From: a virus
Length of the DNA: 27,730 nt
Virus genome (UHGV): UHGV-0278671
Reading direction: 5' to 3' (one strand)
The position numbers and the translations under genes are program-made. Under the pieces are notes generated by a model. That model was not told the DNA's origin, searched no databases, and saw nothing but the letters and a program-made list of their open reading frames with translations. Of the stretch, positions 1,932 through 20,626 are shown piece after piece; the first letter of the stretch is position 1; the number at the start of each line of letters is the position of its first letter.

Positions 1932-4051
1932 CTGTCACTAGCGAGCCATGTAATAATCCCCGTGCGGGCAATGGTTTTTGCTTCATCTGTTGATAAGGTT
2001 TTCTCCCATCTCTTAAATGCCCCAGATTGCATCAGTTTCCTTTCTATTACGCGTCTCACTTCTGCTCTGTCTACTGGTGCGTTTTGCAGGCGAAATAGCA
2101 TTGATTTAAACTCAGGAGAAGACAGTAGAGCATCAGCAGCCTTTATCCTGCTTGTTTTCCCTGACATCAATGCGGACGTTATCACCCCTGTTGCACCTAC
2201 ACCAGGAAGACCAGATAAGCTTGTAACACCTTCCGCCGCAGCAGCTTTTGAGGCTATTCCATAAATTTTTGCTAGACTACCCTTTTCCTTCAGAAAGTTA
2301 TTAACTTGCTGATCCACAAGGCTGCTAGCATACTGCTTACCAGTATTGAGTCTATTCATAGCCTTGGCTGCTTGATAAATCGTATCAAGGCGCTTTGATG
2401 CATCTGTGCCAATAGCATCACGGAGAGCCTTCATATTGGCCCCATTGCGTGACATTCCGTTATACCATTTTACAAATCCATCAACCCCTAATTGCTGACC
2501 TGGTGATTTAGCATAGCTGGTAAATGCTTTATTCATTGAGGTGAGAGCAACTTCCTGCCGCATATCCTTTGGAATCGACTTCATTAATTGCCTAAAGTCG
2601 CCACCGTTTCCTTTTGCCATATTAACAACGGCACTTTCAACTTTTGGAATTGCTGATTGCTGAAGTTTTCTACCCAAGACGGTTACAGCATCATCTTCAA
2701 TGGATTTTCGTTTTTTTACCAACTCCTTACCAAGCGTCCATAACTCCCCTGCGCCATATTTTTCTGCGACAGCCTGTTGGTCATCTGTTATGGCTGCATA
2801 TAACTTTTTAAGAACACCTGTTTCTTCATCCTTGAATGGGCCAGAGCCTTTGCCAATAGCTTGCCCCACCTGCTTTCTAGCGAGATCTAAACGCCCATAC
2901 GTTGGCAAGGTGTTTGGATCAAGTCGGTTCAATGTCCGCTTCATTATTGGAGATAATTCATCAATTCCCCCTATGTCATCAGCAAAATCCTCTAAAAAAT
3001 TCAACGTATTAGTTGCCTCAATCCGGTCTCTTACCGGAACCTTTTCGGCAATTTTGTTGTAGATGTTATCTGACTGATTTTGTAATGATGAAATGGTTTT
3101 ATCAAAATTATCTGCAAGCCTGTCAGAAACCAGTTGCTTATCAAGGCTTCCCCCAAATGAAGTTATCATTTCATCAGCTTTTCTTCCTAATTCAGTAATA
3201 AAACGCTTATGCGCCTCACTAATCTCCGTTCCAGGAAGACTTGCCACTGCATTATCAAGAGCCCTGACAGCAGGATTATTAGAGATCATGCCTGGAGTGG
3301 CATAATTTTCCAGTTCTAGCTCACGGATGGCATTTATCGCGTTAAAATCAGGATTAACTTCATCGGCGAAACCTTGAATAGCTCGTTGCCCGCCAATAAA
3401 TTTATTATCCATTGCGCCAGCAGCTTTCTTTAACGTTGCTTTAGATGATTTACTACCCATCCCTACGGATGAGCGATAAATATCTCCGGCACTATTTTTA
3501 ATTTTTCCTGCAATCTTCCCAAGCGCTGGACCAACAATCTCTGCTACAGGGCCAGCCACAGCGCCAATAGCAGCGCCGGAAGCAACATCGCTATTTGTTC
3601 CATTGGCTACAATAGCCCCTTCTCCAGCACCAAGCCCTGCGGCGGCAGCCAGCCTTGCCGCCCCTTTCGGAACCTGAGAAATAATCCCACCACCACTAAC
3701 AAATGGCGCTGCTTGTCCAACGAACTCACCAACATCTTGTGCGGTTGATGGTTTTGCCGCTAACTTCTGCTGTAGAGACTGAATTGCGGCTTGCTCTTCT
3801 GGTGTCATATCCTGAAATAGACCAACACCTTTACCAACATCCATCAATCCACTGAGAACGCCATACATAAAACGGTCGAAACCGTTAGCATTATTAACAA
3901 CATTTTCCTGTCTGGAATTTTCCTCTGGTGAAACCAAAGGTGATTGCTGCTGCTCTGGTTGGGAATCAAGCACAAAACCATCAGGAAGCTGTGAGTTATC
4001 AGGCTGATTATCGAGAACAAATCCTTCGGGTAAACCTACATCGGTTGCCAT
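1928..4051 (-). CDS. Putative DNA injection/ejection protein (P22 gp16 position), 707 aa
   Basis: Last large gene of the late operon; N-terminal tandem LP(E/D)GFVLD(N/S)QP repeats and Ala/Gly-rich stretches; assignment is by position in the P22-like gene order. Confidence 0.5.
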
Positions 4052-14166: not shown

Positions 14167-16047
14167 TTAATACTCCGTCACGTTTTCCTGTCGCCACGCC
14201 TCGTCATATTCCGATTTCGGCATATTGGCGATGTAGCTATAAGGCGATCCTGATTCAAGTTGCAGGAACTGGTGCGATTGCTCGTCAAGGAACAACGGGA
14301 CACCACCTTCCCAACCTTCGCCGTTACGTTGTTTTTCAAGCATCAAAACAGATGCCGGAGATGCCAGTAGCTGTTCGTCCTTCTCTGACATCTTTTCACC
14401 ACTCTGAACTCTCTGTAACGCTCTCTCGCGAGCCTTGTTACGCCAGATGATAAAAAGGTTGTCTGTCAGGTCTGTTATCGCTCCAGAGCCTTTTACGTCC
14501 ATTTTCCCGGTTGGTTTTTCTTCGCTATCTCCTTTTCTGGAGTGAGTAACGAGAATGACGTGGGAGTTTGTTTTGTTTTTGAAGTCACAAATCGAGTCAA
14601 CAAATGCTTTCTGCCCGTTATAGTCATCGTCACCTATGCCGCATTTCATCAGGCTGTCGATGATGAATAACTGGATGCCGTATCGGCGGCGAGCGTAGTC
14701 GAATATTTCGATCAGCCTGTCGGCTTTCGCCGTTCCAGTCAGGCCAAACACCCAAAGTCTTTCGTCATAAAATTTAAATGCAGAGTCAATTTCCAGCACT
14801 GGCGGCATCTTGCAGCACGTCGCCTGACGGGTAAGGCGCTTAAGGAGAATACCAGGCTTCAGCTCAAGTGACGCGATGCACGTCTTCACACCCTGACGCA
14901 TTGCCTCAAGTGCCATATGCCCGACAACCTCCGTTTTTCCGTGACCGTTCACACCATTGACCAGCGTCAACTCGGCCTCACGAAACTGGAATTTATCTGC
15001 CAGAGATTCCCACGGTGGATTAAACAGATACTGCTGCTTGCCGTAGAAAGCGTTGATAGTGTCCTGGTAAAACTCTCGCGCGCTGTAGAGTTCTTCAGGA
15101 TCAAAGTAGGATGCCGTGCCGATGTACTGCCAGATTTCATCCTCGGTAACACCGTTCATCAGGCATTCGTTGATGTCTTTGTACGGCAGAGTAACAAGAC
15201 GGCAACGATGTTCACCGAGTCGGCTTGCGATTTCCCTTGCGGCTTCACGACCAACATCATCAACGTCCATCGAGATGAATATTTCCTCAAACCTGTCGAG
15301 GTTGTGGTACTCAAACTCAATCCACTGTTGCTTAGCGCCTTTCCCTCCACCAAACGGCACGGATAACGCCGAGATGCCGTATTGCGCATAGCTCATACAA
15401 TCAATTTCGCCTTCGCAAAGTACAACCGCCCTCACGCCAGCGTCCAGAGCCTGCCATCCGAACAGACAAGGTTCGCAATCACCTTCTGCCATAATGACTT
15501 TCTTCCCGTCCGGGCGCTCAGTGCTGATTCGCTTGACCTGCAACAACTCACCATCGCGTTTGTACGGAAGCACCAGTGCATCAAGTTCTCGTTCTCCATT
15601 CCACACCTTGCCGCTGACAACCTCGTAGCGCTTTACGACTTCTGGCGATATGCCACGCGATTGCAGGTACTCAAGATGGGATTCTGTTCTGGTAACGTAG
15701 CGGGCGATTTTCTTGCGATCAGGTCTGGAGAATTTTTTCTCACGTTTGGCATCGAAATGGTGATCGTCATCCTTGATACCGAGAAATGCTTTCGCTTCCT
15801 GCATAGCCTGATGCAGGTTAATTCCACGACATGCCATCCACAAATCAAGCATGTCACCGCCGTCTCCCTCAGCGAAATCAGCCCATTTTTTCTTGCCGCT
15901 AAGGTTGACCTTAAGGCTGTTTCCCTTGTCACCATTGACGTTACCGGCAACCCACTCATGCCCCTCTTTCTTGCCGTTTGGCAACAGGTGCGGAGCCACC
16001 CTGTCAACCTGCGCCCAAAGCAGGTCGCTAAGTTCACTTGGCGTCAT
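14167..16047 (-). CDS. Bifunctional DNA primase/helicase
   Basis: 626 aa; Toprim-like acidic motifs (VVLCEGEIDCMS, ISMDVDDVG) followed by Walker A GVNGHGKT and Walker B-like LFIIDSLMK; directly downstream of the initiator gene. Confidence 0.8.
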   Translation of the reverse strand: MTPSELSDLLWAQVDRVAPHLLPNGKKEGHEWVAGNVNGDKGNSLKVNLSGKKKWADFAEGDGGDMLDLWMACRGINLHQAMQEAKAFLGIKDDDHHFDAKREKKFSRPDRKKIARYVTRTESHLEYLQSRGISPEVVKRYEVVSGKVWNGERELDALVLPYKRDGELLQVKRISTERPDGKKVIMAEGDCEPCLFGWQALDAGVRAVVLCEGEIDCMSYAQYGISALSVPFGGGKGAKQQWIEFEYHNLDRFEEIFISMDVDDVGREAAREIASRLGEHRCRLVTLPYKDINECLMNGVTEDEIWQYIGTASYFDPEELYSAREFYQDTINAFYGKQQYLFNPPWESLADKFQFREAELTLVNGVNGHGKTEVVGHMALEAMRQGVKTCIASLELKPGILLKRLTRQATCCKMPPVLEIDSAFKFYDERLWVFGLTGTAKADRLIEIFDYARRRYGIQLFIIDSLMKCGIGDDDYNGQKAFVDSICDFKNKTNSHVILVTHSRKGDSEEKPTGKMDVKGSGAITDLTDNLFIIWRNKARERALQRVQSGEKMSEKDEQLLASPASVLMLEKQRNGEGWEGGVPLFLDEQSHQFLQLESGSPYSYIANMPKSEYDEAWRQENVTEY

Positions 16048-16154
16048 GATTCCCTCAGATTGAGATTTTTAAACCAGAAATCGACAAACGAAATACTTAA
16101 CCAGCCGTGGTTATAACCAGCAACCAGTAGCGATTTGATTTTTGATTTCATGGT

Positions 16155-17015
16155 TCACCTGTCGAAAAACACGTAGCCAGTTTTCGATACGGTGATTGCG
16201 GATGATGGTTTGGATTGTGGTTGAATAGTTTCTGGCTTCTCGTCGTTCCAGCGTTGACCGTTCAGGTAGCTCGATGGTAACAACCTGTCGAATCCGAACT
16301 GCTTACCATTCCTGCATGCGATGTCTTCTGCCAGCATCGTGGCAAACTCGCTTGCCGTACCCCTGGTAGTTTTACGCCATTCCCTGAACTGTGTTCTGAA
16401 TGCCGAAGCTGCGTTTTTCTTCCCGGCTTTCCGCATGCCTGCACACCAGAATATTTCCTCGAATGCCTTGTCGGTTTCTTCGTGACGGTCATGTGATTTT
16501 TCACACTCCGTCCGAACACTTTCGGACATAGTGTTTTTATTATTTCTTTTTTCTTTTGTAATAGTTTCTTTTGTGTGTCCCTGTTTTGGTGACAGCGCTG
16601 TCACCGTTTTGGTGACACTTTTTGTCACCAATGCAGTGACATTATCACCAGAGTAGTGACACCCTTCGATTTGCCATTCTTCGATGTTCTTGTTAGGCCC
16701 GATTTGCTGGCCTTCGCGAAGGATAACCTTCATCGCGATAAGCTCATTCTTGGCCTTGTTTACCTTCTGTCTTGGCAGCCTGGTAATTTGAGCTAACTGA
16801 CTATCAGAAATGCGATCCATCTTTTTACCGTAGCCGTATGTTTTACGGCATATGGCGTGGGCAACCTTGCTCTGATTTTTCGTTAAATCTGCGCCGATAA
16901 GCTCTTCATACAGGGCATTTGCAAGACGGGTATAACCATCTTCAACTTCTGCCACACGACGCTCCACAGGCCGTTGTGAAGGCCTTAAATGTGTTACGGT
17001 TGCAAGATTACTCAT
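16155..17015 (-). CDS. Replication initiator (lambda O-like) with the origin inside the gene
   Basis: Position after cII; AAGGAG Shine-Dalgarno; the iteron array is translated in frame as a repetitive [18 protein letters not shown] linker. Confidence 0.75.
16524..16664 (-). repeat. Replication origin: four iterons plus adjacent AT-rich tract
   Basis: Iterons with GGTGACA/TGTCACC inverted cores at 16584-16605, 16606-16630, 16631-16650 and 16651-16664; AT-rich tract 16524-16580. Confidence 0.7.
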
Positions 17016-17166
17016 GACCTTTCTCCTTCTGCATCAGCTTCACTTTTTCCAACTCAGCCCGGAATCGACCAGGCTGCTTGAAGCTGGACAGGAAGCGATC
17101 ACGTAGTATGTGTTTGTGAATTTTGTCCTGGTAAGGACTGAGTTGTTTTGTCATAATGACTCCTGT

Positions 17167-17241
17167 GGATTGATCCAGTAATGACCTCAGAATTCCATCT
17201 GGATTTGTTCAGAACGCTCGGTTGCCTCCGGGCGTTTTTTA
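17167..17241 (+). ncRNA. oop: oop antisense RNA overlapping the cII 3' end
   Basis: Plus strand gattgatccagtaatgacctcagaattccatctggatttgttcagaacgctcggttgcctccgggcgtttttt closely matches lambda oop as remembered; CATAAT -10 at 17152-17157; hairpin plus T6 terminator. Confidence 0.6.
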
Positions 17242-17480
17242 TTGGTGAGAATCGAAGCAACTTGTCGTGCCAATCGAGCCATATCGTCGTCGACGACGCC
17301 CCATTCAAGAACAGCAAGCAGCATTGAGAACTTTGGAATCCAATCCCTCTTCCACCTGCTGATCTGCGACTTATCAACTCCCACAGCTTCCGCTGTCTTC
17401 TCAGTTCCAAGCATTGCGATTTTGTTAAGCAACGCACTCTCGATTCTTAGAGCCTCGTTGCGTTTGTTTGCACGAACCAT
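17187..17480 (-). CDS. cII: CII transcriptional activator
   Basis: 97 aa [51 protein letters not shown]... essentially lambda CII; lambda-like leader taaggaaatacttacatATG; the ORF-track N-terminal extension is not used. Confidence 0.9.
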
Positions 17481-17538
17481 ATGTAAGTATTTCCTTAACA
17501 AATAAGAAGTTATGCGCATCAACTTATGCGCGTTGTAT

Positions 17539-17582
17539 TCCCGCATTTCGGCGGGAATGAGGACCATGACTGTTAAAGAGCG
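17539..17582 (-). promoter_or_regulatory. nutR: boxA CGCTCTTTAACA plus boxB hairpin
   Basis: On the minus strand between cro and cII: boxA cgctctttaaca (17571-17582) and boxB tcccgccgaaatgcggga (17539-17556), identical to the nutL copy. Confidence 0.6.
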
Positions 17583-17588
17583 GTGTTA

Positions 17589-17783
17589 CTATTTGTTTTT
17601 CTTGTTGCTTGGGAAAGGACGAACTTCCTCTCCAATCACACTGCCATCAGGCTTTACCGTAACCATGATGTTACGGCCTGCCAGAATGGCCTTGCTGATA
17701 GCGCACTGGATTACACCAAAGTCACTGGCTGCTTTAGCCTGTCCATGGATTTTGGCGTAATCGGCAAGTGTCATTCGAATCAT
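17589..17783 (-). CDS. cro: Cro repressor
   Basis: 64 aa [62 protein letters not shown] aligns with lambda Cro; GGAG 7 nt before ATG 17783. Confidence 0.85.
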
Positions 17784-17812
17784 ATGCACTCTCCGTTATT
17801 AACCATGAACAA

Positions 17813-17883
17813 AGAATACTACAGGTATTCAAAGCAATCAATACTCAGGGTATTTTTAGTTTAAGTACCTTAGCTATTAGAAT
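17813..17883. promoter_or_regulatory. OR operator region with divergent pR and pRM
   Basis: Operators AATACtacagGTATT (17815-17829), AATACtcaggGTATT (17840-17854), degenerate AGTACcttagCTATT (17864-17878). pR on minus: -35 TTGATT 17836-17841, -10 TATTCT 17813-17818. pRM on plus: -10 TAGAAT 17878-17883, ending ~7 nt before the cI ATG (near-leaderless). Confidence 0.6.
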
Positions 17884-17889
17884 TAAGCT

Positions 17890-18606
17890 ATGGAAAATAA
17901 AAAATCACTGACGACAGAACAGCTCGAAGACGCTAAGCGGCTTAAGGCTTTGTATGAGTCAAAAAAGAAAGAATTGGGGATAACCCAATACTCAATCGCT
18001 GATGAACTGGGTATCACCCAAGGAGCGGTAGGGCATTATCTTAATGGCAGAAACGCGCTAAACGTTGAGGTTGCATCTGGTTTTGCACGACTGTTGCAAG
18101 TCTCAATTGCTGATTTTAGCCAGTCAATTGCTGCCAAGGTTGCAGAACAGGCAGAAAGCCTTAAGAGCGATGCCAACGTAAGGTATGCAGGGGAATACAG
18201 AGCAGGAAAGAGGTATCCGGTGTTAAGCAGTATCCAGGCTGGCTCGTGGTGTGAAGCATGCGAACCATACACCATTAAAGACATAGATGTTTGGCTTGAG
18301 TCTGACGCGCATATTCAAGGTAATGCGTTCTGGCTTAAAGTGGAAGGTGATTCAATGACGGCACCGGTTGGGTTAAGCATTCCAGAGGGAACATTCGTTC
18401 TTTTCGATACCGGAAGGGAGGCGATCAACGGCAGCTTGGTCATAGCAAAACTTTCTGACTCTAACGAAGCAACATTCAAGAAGCTGATAATCGACGGCGG
18501 AAATAAATACCTTAAGGGACTTAATCCTGCATGGCCTCTCGTGCCAATCAATGGAAACTGCAAGATTATAGGCGTTGCAATTGAGACAAAACTAAGGCTG
18601 GTTTGA
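17890..18606 (+). CDS. cI: CI repressor (HTH plus LexA-like self-cleaving C-terminal domain)
   Basis: N-terminus LTTEQLEDAKRLKALYESKKKELGITQ and HTH; C-terminal FWLKVEGDSMTAP...FKKLI matches lambda CI FWLEVEGNSMTAP...FKKLI (catalytic Ser/Lys context). Confidence 0.9.
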   Translation: MENKKSLTTEQLEDAKRLKALYESKKKELGITQYSIADELGITQGAVGHYLNGRNALNVEVASGFARLLQVSIADFSQSIAAKVAEQAESLKSDANVRYAGEYRAGKRYPVLSSIQAGSWCEACEPYTIKDIDVWLESDAHIQGNAFWLKVEGDSMTAPVGLSIPEGTFVLFDTGREAINGSLVIAKLSDSNEATFKKLIIDGGNKYLKGLNPAWPLVPINGNCKIIGVAIETKLRLV

Positions 18607-18623
18607 TCACGCAAGGGGCGATT

Positions 18624-18992
18624 ATGGTTGGAACCGCTATAGCAAGCTTTTTTGGGATGTTGGCAATCTCGACAATTTACGGCTTAGCGCATGCTTTTAT
18701 TGCGAAATCTCTATCAGAAAAAATAAGCCAGGCTTGGGCGCATAGATCAGCTCGTTTCATGATTCTAGTGATCATAGCAATACAAGGGATATCTGCATTT
18801 ATCCTCTATGGTTCAAGCTTATACCTGTTGTATCAAGGCGCGACATTTACGCCTTACACCAGTGATTACGGAACTCTATACGATGGTAGTGAAGACATCT
18901 CTATGGCTTGGATTGTCTTTGGTTTATCTATGGCCGTGTCTGTTGTAGCAGATATCATTAAGGTAATTCTCGTCTTAACCTTCGCTGACTAA
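18624..18992 (+). CDS. Polytopic inner-membrane protein co-transcribed with cI (rexB/sieB position)
   Basis: AAGGGG 6 nt before ATG 18624, 18 nt after the cI stop; about four hydrophobic helices in 122 aa; no similarity to lambda RexB recognised. Confidence 0.55.
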   Translation: MVGTAIASFFGMLAISTIYGLAHAFIAKSLSEKISQAWAHRSARFMILVIIAIQGISAFILYGSSLYLLYQGATFTPYTSDYGTLYDGSEDISMAWIVFGLSMAVSVVADIIKVILVLTFAD

Positions 18993-19123
18993 CCTATAAT
19001 CCCGGCAGCAATAGCTATCGGGATCCACTTCACATATCCCGCATAAAAAGCACTGAACAAGCAGACACCGAAAAAATAAATATCCTTTGTATTCATTTAC
19101 TTATCATTATTTCATCAAAAATA

Positions 19124-19165
19124 AATACCTTGGGTATTTACACAATAAAATACCTACAGTATTCT
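19124..19165 (+). promoter_or_regulatory. OL operators overlapping pL
   Basis: Perfect operators AATACcttggGTATT (19124-19138) and AATACctacaGTATT (19149-19163); -35 TTTACA 19137-19142, 17-nt spacer, -10 TATTCT 19160-19165. Confidence 0.6.
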
Positions 19166-19211
19166 TTAGCCATCAGCAGGACGCTGGTAGCCAAACGGAA
19201 CATATTGGCAG

Positions 19212-19252
19212 GCTCTTTAACATTGATGGGATTGTCCCGCCGAAATGCGGGA
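19212..19252 (+). promoter_or_regulatory. nutL: boxA GCTCTTTAACA plus boxB hairpin
   Basis: boxA 19212-19222 matches the rrn-type boxA consensus; boxB tcccgccgaaatgcggga 19235-19252 (5-bp stem CCCGC/GCGGG), identical to nutR. Confidence 0.6.
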
Positions 19253-19359
19253 ACCAAAGAGTAGTTGGCTTTGGGGTGACGTGAAGTGCAGCTGCACGAC
19301 GGCAACCGGAAGATAAGCACCCGGCGCGTCACCTCCAAAGTCAATCATCGGAGATCAAC

Positions 19360-19632
19360 ATGACAGTAGTCATTACATATCTGGCTGACGATAACACCAG
19401 AAATCGCCGCAGAGCACGCAGACAGGCTCAACGTGAACAGGCAATGCAAGAGCAGCGACTGGCGCGAAAAATTGCGCTAAAGCTCTCTGGTTGCGTCAGA
19501 GCAGACAAAGCAGCATCACTCGGAAGCCTTCGCTGCAAGAAGGCAGATGAATGCAGTGGAAGTATTTGCCTGCCAGAAGTTGCGCTTTTCGCAGCTGGTC
19601 ATCGTACAAGTAAGCAGGTTACAGCGAGGTAA
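19360..19632 (+). CDS. N: N-type antitermination protein
   Basis: Arginine-rich motif NTRNRRRARRQAQREQ near the N-terminus; C-terminus LPEVALFAAGHRTSKQVTAR resembles P22 gp24 as remembered; first gene after pL/nutL. Confidence 0.75.
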   Translation: MTVVITYLADDNTRNRRRARRQAQREQAMQEQRLARKIALKLSGCVRADKAASLGSLRCKKADECSGSICLPEVALFAAGHRTSKQVTAR

Positions 19633-19635
19633 GTG

Positions 19636-19860
19636 ATGAATCAGACATACATTCCATCATGCTTGAGAAATCTGCCAAAGCAGAAAGCAAAGCCCCGCAA
19701 GCAAGCCATAAAGGACGCTAAGGCAGAGGTTATTGATCAAGCAATACAATTGCTCAGGGAGGAGTTAAGAAGTGGCAAGCTCGAAGGAATGATGATGCCC
19801 TATCAGCGCGGATATCTATCGGCGATTAGTAAGTTGGAAGTATTGAAGAGTGAATTATGA
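19636..19860 (+). CDS. Hypothetical protein (74 aa)
   Basis: Starts immediately after the N stop; GAGG 7 nt before ATG 19636. Confidence 0.4.
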   Translation: MNQTYIPSCLRNLPKQKAKPRKQAIKDAKAEVIDQAIQLLREELRSGKLEGMMMPYQRGYLSAISKLEVLKSEL

Positions 19861-19922
19861 ACTATCTGGAATTTCCGGATGGTTCATTGTTTTGGCAGCA
19901 AACCACTTATTTGAGGTGAGAT

Positions 19923-20393
19923 ATGACAAAATCATGGAGCGTACCTTTTCCTGAATCAGAAACTGAACATGATGGAATGCCTGTTTTCTGGAGATTCCAG
20001 GCGACAGTTGAAGAAGATGGGATAAAAATATTCGCACTTCAATATATAGCTTTTCATCAGACAGAGCATTATGCATGGTTGGTTCCTGCGCATTGGATTG
20101 TTAATTTTAAACCAGCACCAAATCAGTGGTTACAGGAATGGAAACAAAGGAGAAATAGATATGCAATTAAGAAAGTAGCAAAAAATGCAGAAAGATCTTT
20201 TGCATTCCCAACGAAGAAACTTGCCATTGAGAGTTTATTGCGCCGGAAGAAATACCATTTAATGAGAATCAAACAAGATTTGGCTGTTGTATCAACTCTT
20301 GTTGATGGGATGAAGAATATTGATACATCAACACCAGATATTGAATATAACTTTGGACACAACCAAGAAACAGAAAATTGGGTATTCTACTAG
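19923..20393 (+). CDS. Hypothetical protein (156 aa) in an AT-rich segment
   Basis: GAGGTGAG before the ATG; visibly lower GC than neighbouring genes; no recognisable motifs. Confidence 0.5.
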   Translation: MTKSWSVPFPESETEHDGMPVFWRFQATVEEDGIKIFALQYIAFHQTEHYAWLVPAHWIVNFKPAPNQWLQEWKQRRNRYAIKKVAKNAERSFAFPTKKLAIESLLRRKKYHLMRIKQDLAVVSTLVDGMKNIDTSTPDIEYNFGHNQETENWVFY

Positions 20394-20626
20394 GACGCAT
20401 AGTCGGCCTTTATTTTTGGCATAAACAACAGAATAAATACTGCACTGTGTATTCATTCCAACGAGTGAATACACGGAGCAATGTCGCTCGTAACTAAACA
20501 GGAGCCGACTTGTTCTGATTATTGGAAATCTTCTTTGCCCTCCAGTGTGAGGGCTTTTTTATATGCATACCAATAACGCTTCACTCGAGGCGTTTTCGTT
20601 ATGCAATCAAACAGAAGGAGCATCCT

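Follow-up and report, generated by a model that had tools for sequence, protein, structure and literature searches.

Paired nutL and nutR sites of the HK620 type flanking the immunity region of a lambdoid prophage, and co-inheritance of their boxB loop with the arginine-rich motif of N

In phage lambda, the boxB stem GCCCU/AGGGC is 5 bp long and carries the loops GAAAA or GAAGA, which are GNRA-like pentaloops, and boxA is CGCUCUUA, which lacks one U of the rrn type. Antitermination in the rrn operons is not known to use an N protein, and a boxB-like hairpin precedes boxA there. In phage 21 (OL657228, in which boxA-L, nutL, boxA-R, and nutR are annotated), the arginine-rich motif (ARM) of N is GTAKSRYKARRAELIAERR, the nutL boxB is UCUCAAC-CUAAC-CGUUGAGA, and the nutR boxB is UCACCU-CUAACC-GGGUGA; the stems differ between nutL and nutR, and the loop is not GNRA. 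The gp24/nut system of P22, read from the P22-type phage BTP1, has the rrn-like boxA CGCTCTTTAAC, the boxB GCGCU-GACAA-AGCGC, and the ARM GNAKTRRHERRRKLAIER. According to published work (PMC8022706), two gp24 proteins can replace each other although their C-termini are unrelated, and it is the N-terminus that carries the specificity. The system most similar to the locus described here is that of HK620 (GenBank AF335538; Clark et al. 2001), whose record of 2001 annotates putative nutL and nutR as well as pL, pR, OL, OR, and tR1, at the same positions as found below, and the record of mEpX2 annotates the boxA sites.

We analyzed a 27,730-nt stretch of the virus genome UHGV-0278671, called the window below. 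An earlier note, made from the letters of the window, had claimed that an identical boxB lies downstream of both pL and pR, and this held: the 18-mer TCCCGCCGAAATGCGGGA was present exactly twice, once in each early operon. When the window was dinucleotide-shuffled, none of 100 shuffles gave two matches to the 18-mer, even with 3 mismatches allowed. Since the window runs inverted relative to the lambda map, the site at 19235 is nutL and the site at 17539 is nutR. The features of the region are as follows.

17514..17531, minus strand: hairpin GCGCAU-AAGUUG-AUGCGC, between nutR, which it closely follows, and the cII ribosome-binding site, from the fold of a 111-nt segment
17539..17556, minus strand: nutR boxB, UCCCGC-CGAAAU-GCGGGA, stem extendable to 8 bp over 17537-17558
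17557..17570, minus strand: nutR spacer GUCAUGGUCCUCAU, the 14-nt gap between boxA and boxB
17571..17582, minus strand: nutR boxA CGCTCTTTAACA, starting 7 nt past the cro stop codon
17589..17783, minus strand: cro, first gene of the pR operon, upstream of nutR (Pfam Cro, 91.3 bits; HK620 annotation)
17806..17879, minus strand: pR with OR1-OR3, coordinates from the HK620 annotation
17814-17830, minus strand: OR1 palindrome GAATACTACAGGTATTC, an operator match overlapping the -10 hexamer TATTCT
17890..18606, plus strand: cI repressor (HTH_3 and Peptidase_S24; HK620 annotation)
19137..19172, plus strand: pL, TTTACA-17-TATTCT, from a promoter scan, overlapped by OL1 (19148-19164)
19211..19222, plus strand: nutL boxA GGCTCTTTAACA, the same as the boxA-L annotated in phage 21
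19223..19234, plus strand: nutL spacer UUGAUGGGAUUG, 12 nt, read from the sequence
19235..19252, plus strand: nutL boxB, UCCCGC-CGAAAU-GCGGGA, exact motif and fold
19264..19345, plus strand: long N-leader hairpin, between nutL and the N ribosome-binding site
19360..19632, plus strand: N antiterminator, 90 aa (Pfam PF25694 N_peptide, 51.7 bits; cut-off 27.9)
about 19387-19443, plus strand: ARM DDNTRNRRRARRQAQREQA, about residues 10-28 of N, from in-register alignment with lambda RRRERR
19857-19887: second candidate terminator, from a consensus scan
20537..20554, plus strand: candidate intrinsic terminator GCCCTC-CAGTGT-GAGGGC followed by TTTTTT, in the pL operon downstream of N, from a consensus scan

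Cro, CII, the S24 repressor, and N (via Pfam N_peptide) were all recognized in the window, and the order along it was cII, nutR, cro, OR, cI, OL/pL, nutL, leader hairpin, N. In the direction of transcription, this gives pL, nutL, leader hairpin, and N on one side, N being the first ORF after pL, and pR, cro, nutR, and cII on the other, with one nut site per early operon at positions matching the annotated sites of HK620, 21, and lambda. The window was 98.7% identical to HK620 over 17478-19575, with the same gene order, operators, promoters, and cI/cro/N, and the nut sequences of the two were identical base for base. The window differed from HK620 in having a lambda-type cII and another replication module beyond nutR, and in a few residues of N, T13 among them. 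The paired sites are thus very probably the nutL and nutR of a lambdoid (P22-like, HK620-immunity) prophage. They are ordinary members of the lambdoid N/nut system that were annotated earlier in HK620, and their value as a discovery is small, since they are lambdoid nut sites of the textbook kind with the very sequence of the putative sites of 2001.

Both nut sites consisted of [C/G]GCUCUUUAACA, a gap of 12-14 nt, and the 18-nt hairpin, all on the transcribed strand. The 11-mer GCTCTTTAACA was found at 17571-17581 (minus strand) and 19212-19222 (plus strand), and each boxB lay 12-14 nt downstream of one copy on the same strand. By itself this 11-mer was weakly unusual (9 of 100 shuffles reached 2 matches at up to 1 mismatch). 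After coordinate transfer (window = L001 + 16877), the nutR boxA fell within the nutR annotated in HK620. The core GCUCUUUAACA was identical to that of an E. coli rrn leader; about 140 nt before the 16S gene, this leader has the sequence TGCTCTTTAACAA, which contains an exact match to the 11-mer, as the earlier note had asserted for an rrn-type boxA. Because the rrn boxA binds NusB/NusE more tightly than the lambda boxA (PMC2800207), strong binding of NusB/NusE would be expected of the boxA in the window.

RNA folding bore out the hairpin at both sites, with a 6-bp stem (8 bp at nutR) and the 6-nt loop CGAAAU, and the bare 18-mer folded at -9.7 kcal/mol (z = -2.9). Within this loop, GAAA most likely forms a GNRA tetraloop, with the C and U on either side of it unpaired or mismatched. 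Among variants of boxB, 85.7% of the cells were paired in the assigned register and at most 58.9% when it was slid, an advantage that is partly circular, as the variants were gathered with the loop fixed and the hairpin formers were hand-picked; in the same counts, 10 cells were changed on both sides of the stem as compared with 4.6 ± 1.8 in shuffles. With the stem kept constant instead, just two further loops turned up in nut context, that is, upstream of or about 1.6 kb from the gene for an N relative: CGAGAU and CGCAAU, both GNRA. A Rfam search of 17000-20000 at E <= 10 returned only chance matches to eukaryotic families, and Rfam contains no nut or boxB family. A scan of genome contigs with the pattern boxA-N(8-26)-CCGAAATG was overwhelmed by fortuitous matches from unrelated phyla, so it serves only as a negative control; among the matches listed, which stop short of Enterobacteriaceae, 113 of 120 had at most 3 contiguous pairs. 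G+C-rich hairpins in 5' leaders, with a second hairpin following nutR, might also have a role independent of N, in termination, attenuation, or RNA processing. We consider this very unlikely, because there was no U-tract after either boxB (GCGGGAACCAAAG and GCGGGAAUACAAC), a terminator scan made no call at either one, and such a function leaves unexplained why they directly follow a Nus-factor boxA and why they vary in step with the class of the ARM, as described below.

The perfect inverted repeats of 6-8 bp flank the immunity region, as would DNA sites for a dimeric DNA-binding protein, for example an additional operator. However, the two copies lie on opposite strands and yet are identical along the transcript, and this extends to the upstream boxA and to the loop CGAAAT, which is asymmetric; a symmetric DNA site would need neither. 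Among relatives, the loop stays the same, whereas the stems change by G-U wobbles, a kind of pair that forms only in RNA; the true operators are another palindrome, 17 bp long and overlapping the promoters; and boxB switches with the ARM of N, not with cI or cro. A role as DNA operators is therefore exceedingly improbable, and we continue to regard the repeats as RNA hairpins. The predicted start of the pL transcript was A19172, the first base of ATCAGCAGGACGC, and the start of this leader was the same in the lambda, 21, and P22 types.

Homology among the immunity cassettes set in precisely at the start of the pL transcript and at the nutR boxA: five unrelated cI/cro cassettes lay between unchanged nut sites, and the nutR spacer was kept in all five. 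Both boxB copies were exact in 74 of 80 IMG/VR loci encoding the N of the window, although most of these loci are very close relatives, so that the conservation partly reflects recent common descent. In some relatives (L029, L035, and L053) nutL was lost or disrupted, indicating that the site is dispensable in some prophages, and one might suppose that the sites are nut-like relics, with the specificity of N lying elsewhere, or that antitermination is mediated by RNA only, as at the put sites of HK022. The HK022 put site is a two-stem structure of roughly 70 nt. This explanation appears highly improbable to us: the three cases involve insertions or rearrangements, as is usual in prophages undergoing decay, both sites were exact in the 74 loci, an intact N with a conserved ARM was always adjacent, and a single short hairpin with boxA is unlike the put architecture. 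The reading as nutL and nutR is retained here. Some relatives carried an insertion of about 330 nt after the nutL boxB, for which a Rfam search found nothing.

The hairpin in the N leader folded at -41.3 kcal/mol (z = -4.0). Its stem base was kept across 8 diverged loci, in which 8 pairs persisted despite changes on both sides, and the motif GGCTTTGGGG...CCAAAG of the hairpin was also found in lambda. Judging from this likeness, the hairpin is homologous to the N-leader stem of lambda, which is RNase III-sensitive. The hairpin at 17514-17531, in the putative tR1 region, adjoins the position of tR1 annotated in HK620 (17531-17537 in the window); like nutR, it was retained from one immunity cassette to another, and in L010 and L030 it showed compensatory changes.

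The comparison with lambda, 21, and P22 that the earlier note had proposed revealed a shared layout with different boxB loops and ARMs. Lambda shares with the window the transcript start AUCAGCAGGACGC and a homologous leader stem; its ARM residues R6-R7-R8-E9-R10-R11 are in register with R16-R17-R18-A19-R20-R21 of the window, and the position of lambda Trp18 is taken by Ala28. Outside the ARM, the N proteins of lambda and the window showed no significant similarity (18% identity). The loop of the window is a hexaloop, C-GAAA-U, containing GAAA, and its 6-bp stem is rich in G+C with C-G as the closing pair, whereas the lambda type has a GAAAA/GAAGA pentaloop closed by U-A on a 5-bp stem; both contain GNRA, and the boxB of the window belongs to another class. 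In phage 21, the pL leader is homologous to that of the window from the transcript start, the nutL boxA is the same GGCTCTTTAACA, and the N-leader hairpin is homologous. The 21 type, however, is defined by a CUAAC(C/A) loop and a GTAKSRYKARR ARM, and the window differed in both, its ARM being DDNTRNRRRARRQAQREQA. The P22 type shares the leader start and an rrn-like boxA and differs in boxB and ARM.

Upon alignment with the ARMs of lambda, 21, and P22, the residues R16, R20, and R21 of the window were invariant. The N of the window has T13, where most relatives have A13. The window N and the N relatives with its ARM showed 100% identity to residues 34-61 of phage 21 N, while the C-terminal module of phage 21 N differed from that of the window. 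N homologs of about 101 aa, considered as carriers of a different ARM, were rejected as such, since they shared the ARM and differed in the C-terminus. A search of PDB sequences with N gave only spurious matches to RNF168; the short N-peptide entries were not retrieved.

In the loci examined, the class of the ARM and the class of the boxB loop (HK620 type, 21 type, P22 type, and lambda) co-occurred without exception. In Enterobacter prophages with N proteins 63-66% identical to that of the window and unrelated cI/cro, both the ARM and boxB were kept. N proteins of 40-55% identity retained N-R-R-[RK]-x-[RK]-R together with the CGAAAU loop while the stems varied, and over the range of 40-65% identity with this ARM class the C-GNRA-U loop was retained. 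Changes of the immunity cassette or of the C-terminus of N left boxB unchanged. In natural chimeras, by contrast, a phage-21 ARM on the same N body, with the same leader and boxA, was accompanied by the phage-21 boxB. Such a switch of boxB with the ARM favors the earlier note's proposal that boxB pairs with the ARM of the N-like protein and sets its specificity, and would place the specificity determinant roughly in residues 8-25 of N. The identity of the two boxB copies, which that note emphasized, is not functionally important, because the nutL and nutR stems of relatives differ from each other. Direct observations on these loci are the anatomy and conservation of the sites, the inheritance of each ARM class together with its boxB loop, and the boundaries of the modules.

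The C-GNRA-U loop probably marks a specificity class distinct from those of lambda, P22, and 21. As a tentative extension, on which we stop a little short of even confidence, the HK620-type ARM (…D-N-x-R-N-R-R-R-A-R-R-Q-A-Q-R-E…) and its boxB may constitute a fourth, structurally uncharacterized N-boxB class, orthogonal to lambda, P22, and 21, in which the peptide would read a loop that is truly GNRA, a tetraloop bordered by a C·U mismatch, and not a pentaloop that takes on a GNRA-like form through extrusion of one base. The HK620-type N-boxB could find use as an orthogonal peptide-RNA pair, or illustrate how an ARM reads a genuine GNRA tetraloop; owing to its orthogonality, it would be usable as an additional RNA-tethering pair. 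The R-to-K variants of the ARM, which accompanied GAGA and GCAA loops, would under the same reading hint at a readable recognition code. In the literature, we found no experiment on the HK620-type N-boxB pair and, in the open literature, no occurrence of the boxB sequence in a phage context; a paper on Nus-dependent mEp phages (PMC11893012) does not mention mEpX2 or HK620.

By analogy with the lambda, 21, and P22 paradigms, N would bind at these sites and bring about antitermination that depends on Nus factors. Upon loss of the repressor, RNA polymerase would start at pL (about 19172, plus strand) and pR (about 17806, minus strand), and each nascent transcript would present boxA ([C/G]GCUCUUUAACA), the spacer of 12-14 nt, and the boxB hairpin UCCCGC-CGAAAU-GCGGGA. 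The N-terminal ARM (about residues 10-28, core N15-R-R-R-A-R-R21) would bind the boxB loop, the rrn-type boxA would recruit NusB/NusE(S10) of the host, and the central part of N (the equivalent of phage 21 residues 34-61) together with the C-terminal part would hold NusA and RNA polymerase. The elongation complex so modified would resist downstream terminators, namely the tR1 region before cII and the hairpins after N in the pL operon. N antitermination could plausibly act on the candidate terminators at 20537-20554 and 19857-19887; the consensus scan that yielded them gave no more hits than it did on shuffled sequence.

The nut sites were present in 501 of 5,426 complete E. coli genomes (about 9%). 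Because RefSeq leaves these sites unannotated, the consensus of boxA followed after 12-14 nt by stem-C-GNRA-U-stem can be used to annotate them.

The 18-mer TCCCGCCGAAATGCGGGA was present in exactly two copies in the 27.7-kb window, at 17539-17556 (-) and 19235-19252 (+), and two matches were obtained in 0 of 100 dinucleotide-preserving shuffles with up to three mismatches permitted. The boxA 11-mer GCTCTTTAACA was located at 17571-17581 (-) and 19212-19222 (+). On the transcribed strand of both sites, boxA was followed by a 12-14 nt spacer and then by the hairpin, giving CGCTCTTTAACA-gtcatggtcctcat-TCCCGCCGAAATGCGGGA at one site and GGCTCTTTAACA-ttgatgggattg-TCCCGCCGAAATGCGGGA at the other. 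RNA folding of the 18-mer gave a CGAAAU loop on a 6-bp stem (-9.7 kcal/mol, z = -2.9), and the stem lengthened to 8 bp at the 17539 (left-hand) site. No U-tract follows the hairpins, which disfavours their being terminators. An E. coli rrn leader contains cacTGCTCTTTAACAAttt about 140 nt upstream of the 16S gene; the boxA 11-mer was therefore an exact rrn match, whereas lambda boxA, CGCTCTTA, is shorter by one T. These results confirmed the earlier note, which had described identical boxB copies at both sites and an rrn-type boxA core.

The window is oriented opposite to the conventional lambda map. The minus strand carries cro, the 17539 site and cII in this order, and the plus strand cI, a small predicted membrane ORF, a promoter, the 19235 site, a long hairpin and the N ORF. 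From this gene context, 17539-17582 was assigned to nutR and 19211-19252 to nutL, among the following features:

17187-17483, minus strand: lambda-type cII (Phage_CII, 163 bits)
17531-17537: candidate terminator by consensus match only, annotated as tR1 in HK620, adjoining a hairpin at 17514-17531
17539-17582, minus strand: nutR, between cro and cII
17589-17783, minus strand: cro (Pfam Cro, 91 bits)
17814-17830 and 19148-19164: 17-bp palindromic operators, one overlapping each promoter
17890-18606, plus strand: cI (HTH_3 plus Peptidase_S24)
19137-19165, plus strand: predicted sigma-70-like promoter
19211-19252, plus strand: nutL, between the promoter and N
19264-19345, plus strand: long, very stable leader hairpin (-41.3 kcal/mol, z = -4.0), downstream of nutL and ahead of the N ribosome-binding site
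19360-19632, plus strand: N, 90-aa ORF (Pfam PF25694, "Transcriptional antitermination N peptide", 51.7 bits, cut-off 27.9)
19857-19887 and 20537-20554: candidate terminators, by consensus match only

The element is an already annotated and very common nutL/nutR pair of the HK620 type. The region 17478-19575 showed 98.7% identity with coliphage HK620 and 96.7-99% with mEpX2, HF4s, HK630, HK140, and others. The HK620 GenBank record annotates pR, OR1-3, pL, OL1-3, tIMM, and tR1, as well as "nutR; putative N-utilization rightward" and "nutL; putative N-utilization leftward", which map to 17537-17582 and 19211-19252 (window = locus + 16877). Both boxA sites are annotated in mEpX2, and the nut sequences were identical among HK620, mEpX2, and the window. 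A nutL probe of 58 nt matched 501 of 5,426 complete E. coli genomes at at least 95% identity; no annotated feature lay under it in the five matches listed. The HK620 and mEpX2 annotations and the 501 genomes indicated that the earlier note had rediscovered a known, common element. A mosaic junction was found at about 17478-17500, shortly after nutR and the tR1 region; beyond it, HK620 has a P22 c1-type cII, and the window and phage HF4s have a lambda-type cII.

Of the 80 IMG/VR loci with an N closely related to this one, 74 had both boxB copies exact, and the DNA between the copies fell into five classes sharing only about 5% of 12-mers. When these sequences were aligned on boxB, homology between classes set in, on the pL side, where the pL transcript is predicted to begin (…AGCC|ATCAGCAGGACGC…) and, on the pR side, at the nutR boxA, right after the cro stop codon, continuing across boxB, the next hairpin, and the cII ribosome-binding site. 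These boundaries indicated that the nut sites travel with N, not with cI/cro. In Enterobacter prophages with N 63-66% identical and unrelated cI/cro, the ARM was kept, the nutL boxB was exact, and the nutR boxB differed solely by U-A to U·G. N proteins of 40-55% identity retained the core N-R-R-[RK]-x-[RK]-R together with the CGAAAU loop, while their stems varied (UCUCCGC/GCGGGGA, UUUCCGC/GCGGGAAA, CCCUGC/GUGGGG); a nutR stem class in this group, GCUCC(C)RC/GY(N)GGAGC, had A-U in place of a G-C pair and an internal mismatch that recurred. Since nutL and nutR stems differ in relatives, identity of the two copies is a lineage feature and not a requirement. Among 14 distinct boxB variants, the helix was 85.7% paired in register versus at most 58.9% slid, and 10 cells were changed on both sides versus 4.6 +/- 1.8 in shuffles, which is supportive and not independent because the variants were gathered with the loop fixed and then chosen by hand for nut context. 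Chance matches to boxA plus loop in unrelated genomes did not fold into stems, with at most three contiguous pairs in 113 of the 120 matches listed. Linkage of boxB to N and not to cI/cro, the stem changes including G·U, the asymmetric, strand-specific loop, and the separate location of the true operators all argue against the repeats being a DNA-level operator. A relic or put-like element is likewise disfavoured, by strong conservation beside an intact N and by the insertions or rearrangements carried by the few loci without nutL.

In three N homologs (P0058, P0090, and P0100), a phage-21 ARM (GTAKSRYKARR…) was fused to the central and C-terminal parts of this N. Their loci had the same pL leader and boxA as the window, and a boxB of phage-21 type, TCTCAACCTAACCGTTGAGA at nutL and TCACCTCTAAC(A/C)GGGT(G/A)A at nutR, matching the nut stem-loops as annotated in phage 21. 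In P0058, the ARM was joined between residues ~22 and 26, so the specificity determinant maps to the first ~25 residues. Homologs of ~101 aa combined a window-type ARM with a lambda/21-type C-terminus. In a P22-type phage, the leader starts as in the window and boxA is nearly identical, with boxB GCGCTGACAAAGCGC and ARM GNAKTRRHERRR. Across the loci examined, boxB class followed ARM class without exception. Taken with the cassette swaps and N divergence, this association supported the nut-site interpretation, including the proposal of the earlier note that ARM-boxB pairing would define RNA specificity. The N family also has two alternative C-terminal modules (this N versus P0012, L087, L086, and L213), …CLPEVALFAAGHRTSKQVTAR in the window, HK620, and Enterobacter prophages and …ERKQNRIYYSKPRSEMGVTCVGRQKIKLGSKPLI in lambda, 21, and BTP1, which recombine independently of the ARM. 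Residue 13 of this N, aligned with lambda N Ala3, is T13; most relatives have A13.

With the stem CCCGC/GCGGG fixed beside boxA, the loop was CGAAAT in 343 instances, and the sole other loops in nut context (upstream of, or ~1.6 kb from, the gene for an N relative) were CGAGAT and CGCAAT; all three are C-GNRA-U. Both variant-loop loci, L214 (at nutL) and L229 (nutL ~8300, nutR 9699), had the ARM core NRRK(A/E)RR in place of NRRRARR, a hint of co-variation, the two loci being effectively one lineage. The L229 nutL boxA is deviant (GCTTATTTAACA). In a MAFFT alignment, lambda R6-R7-R8-E9-R10-R11 was in register with R16-R17-R18-A19-R20-R21 of this N, and lambda Trp18 aligned with Ala28. Legault et al. 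are said to have described in 1998 that the boxB pentaloop takes a GNRA fold. Lambda and P22 N target boxB pentaloops (PMC9074901). We infer that the loop recognised by this ARM is a true GAAA tetraloop with C on one side and U on the other; if so, the pair would fall in a specificity class separate from those of lambda, P22, and 21. We found no functional paper on this N-boxB pair in the openly accessible literature, and the remaining interest is that this class has apparently never been put to experiment.

By homology, derepression would give pL and pR transcripts that gain boxA and boxB; N would bind boxB via its ARM, and the rrn-identical boxA would bind NusB/NusE, which bind rrn boxA more tightly than lambda boxA (PMC2800207). 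In its central region, this N matches residues 34-61 of phage 21 N; this region and the C-terminus may engage NusA and RNA polymerase, yielding a modified complex that would pass the candidate terminators listed above.

The leader hairpin is homologous to the N-leader stem of lambda, 21, and P22, and its base is conserved, with eight compensated pairs across eight loci. The lambda stem is an RNase III site modulating N translation, and the hairpin at 19264-19345 probably functions as an RNase III site or in control of translation. Its interior is highly variable and accepts insertions, such as one of ~320 nt with a small ORF in L003 (~3100-3480); loci with nutL ~445 nt from N are similar. An insertion of ~330 nt without an Rfam match lies directly 3' of the nutL boxB in L035, L053, and L080 (~630-960 in L080), with boundaries …GCGGGAAC|TGAGTTTAACCAAACAGGAGGTG…GAGTGTGAGTC|AAAGAGTAGTTGG. 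In L035 and L053, boxA and the boxB 5' arm are replaced, breaking nutL, and L035 has a phage-21-type N gene 3' end just upstream. In L029, nutL is replaced by an IS-like gene.

Between cI and pL, at the lambda rexAB position, the ORF at 18624-18992 (+) encodes a predicted membrane protein of 122 aa, an hkaS homolog with no significant Pfam family, which could act in exclusion when expressed by the prophage. At 17211-17238 (+), antisense to the cII 3' end and where lambda has its oop RNA terminator, lies a hairpin (AGAACGCTCGGTTGCCTCCGGGCGTTTTTT) that resembles a terminator and has a T-run. Judged from sequence matches, the window overall is a new mosaic: no phage match spans more than 41% of its first 25 kb, and the matches are P22-like phages. 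Instead of lambda O/P, the replication module at 14167-17015 (-) consists of a 626-aa primase/helicase-type protein and a 286-aa O-like protein.
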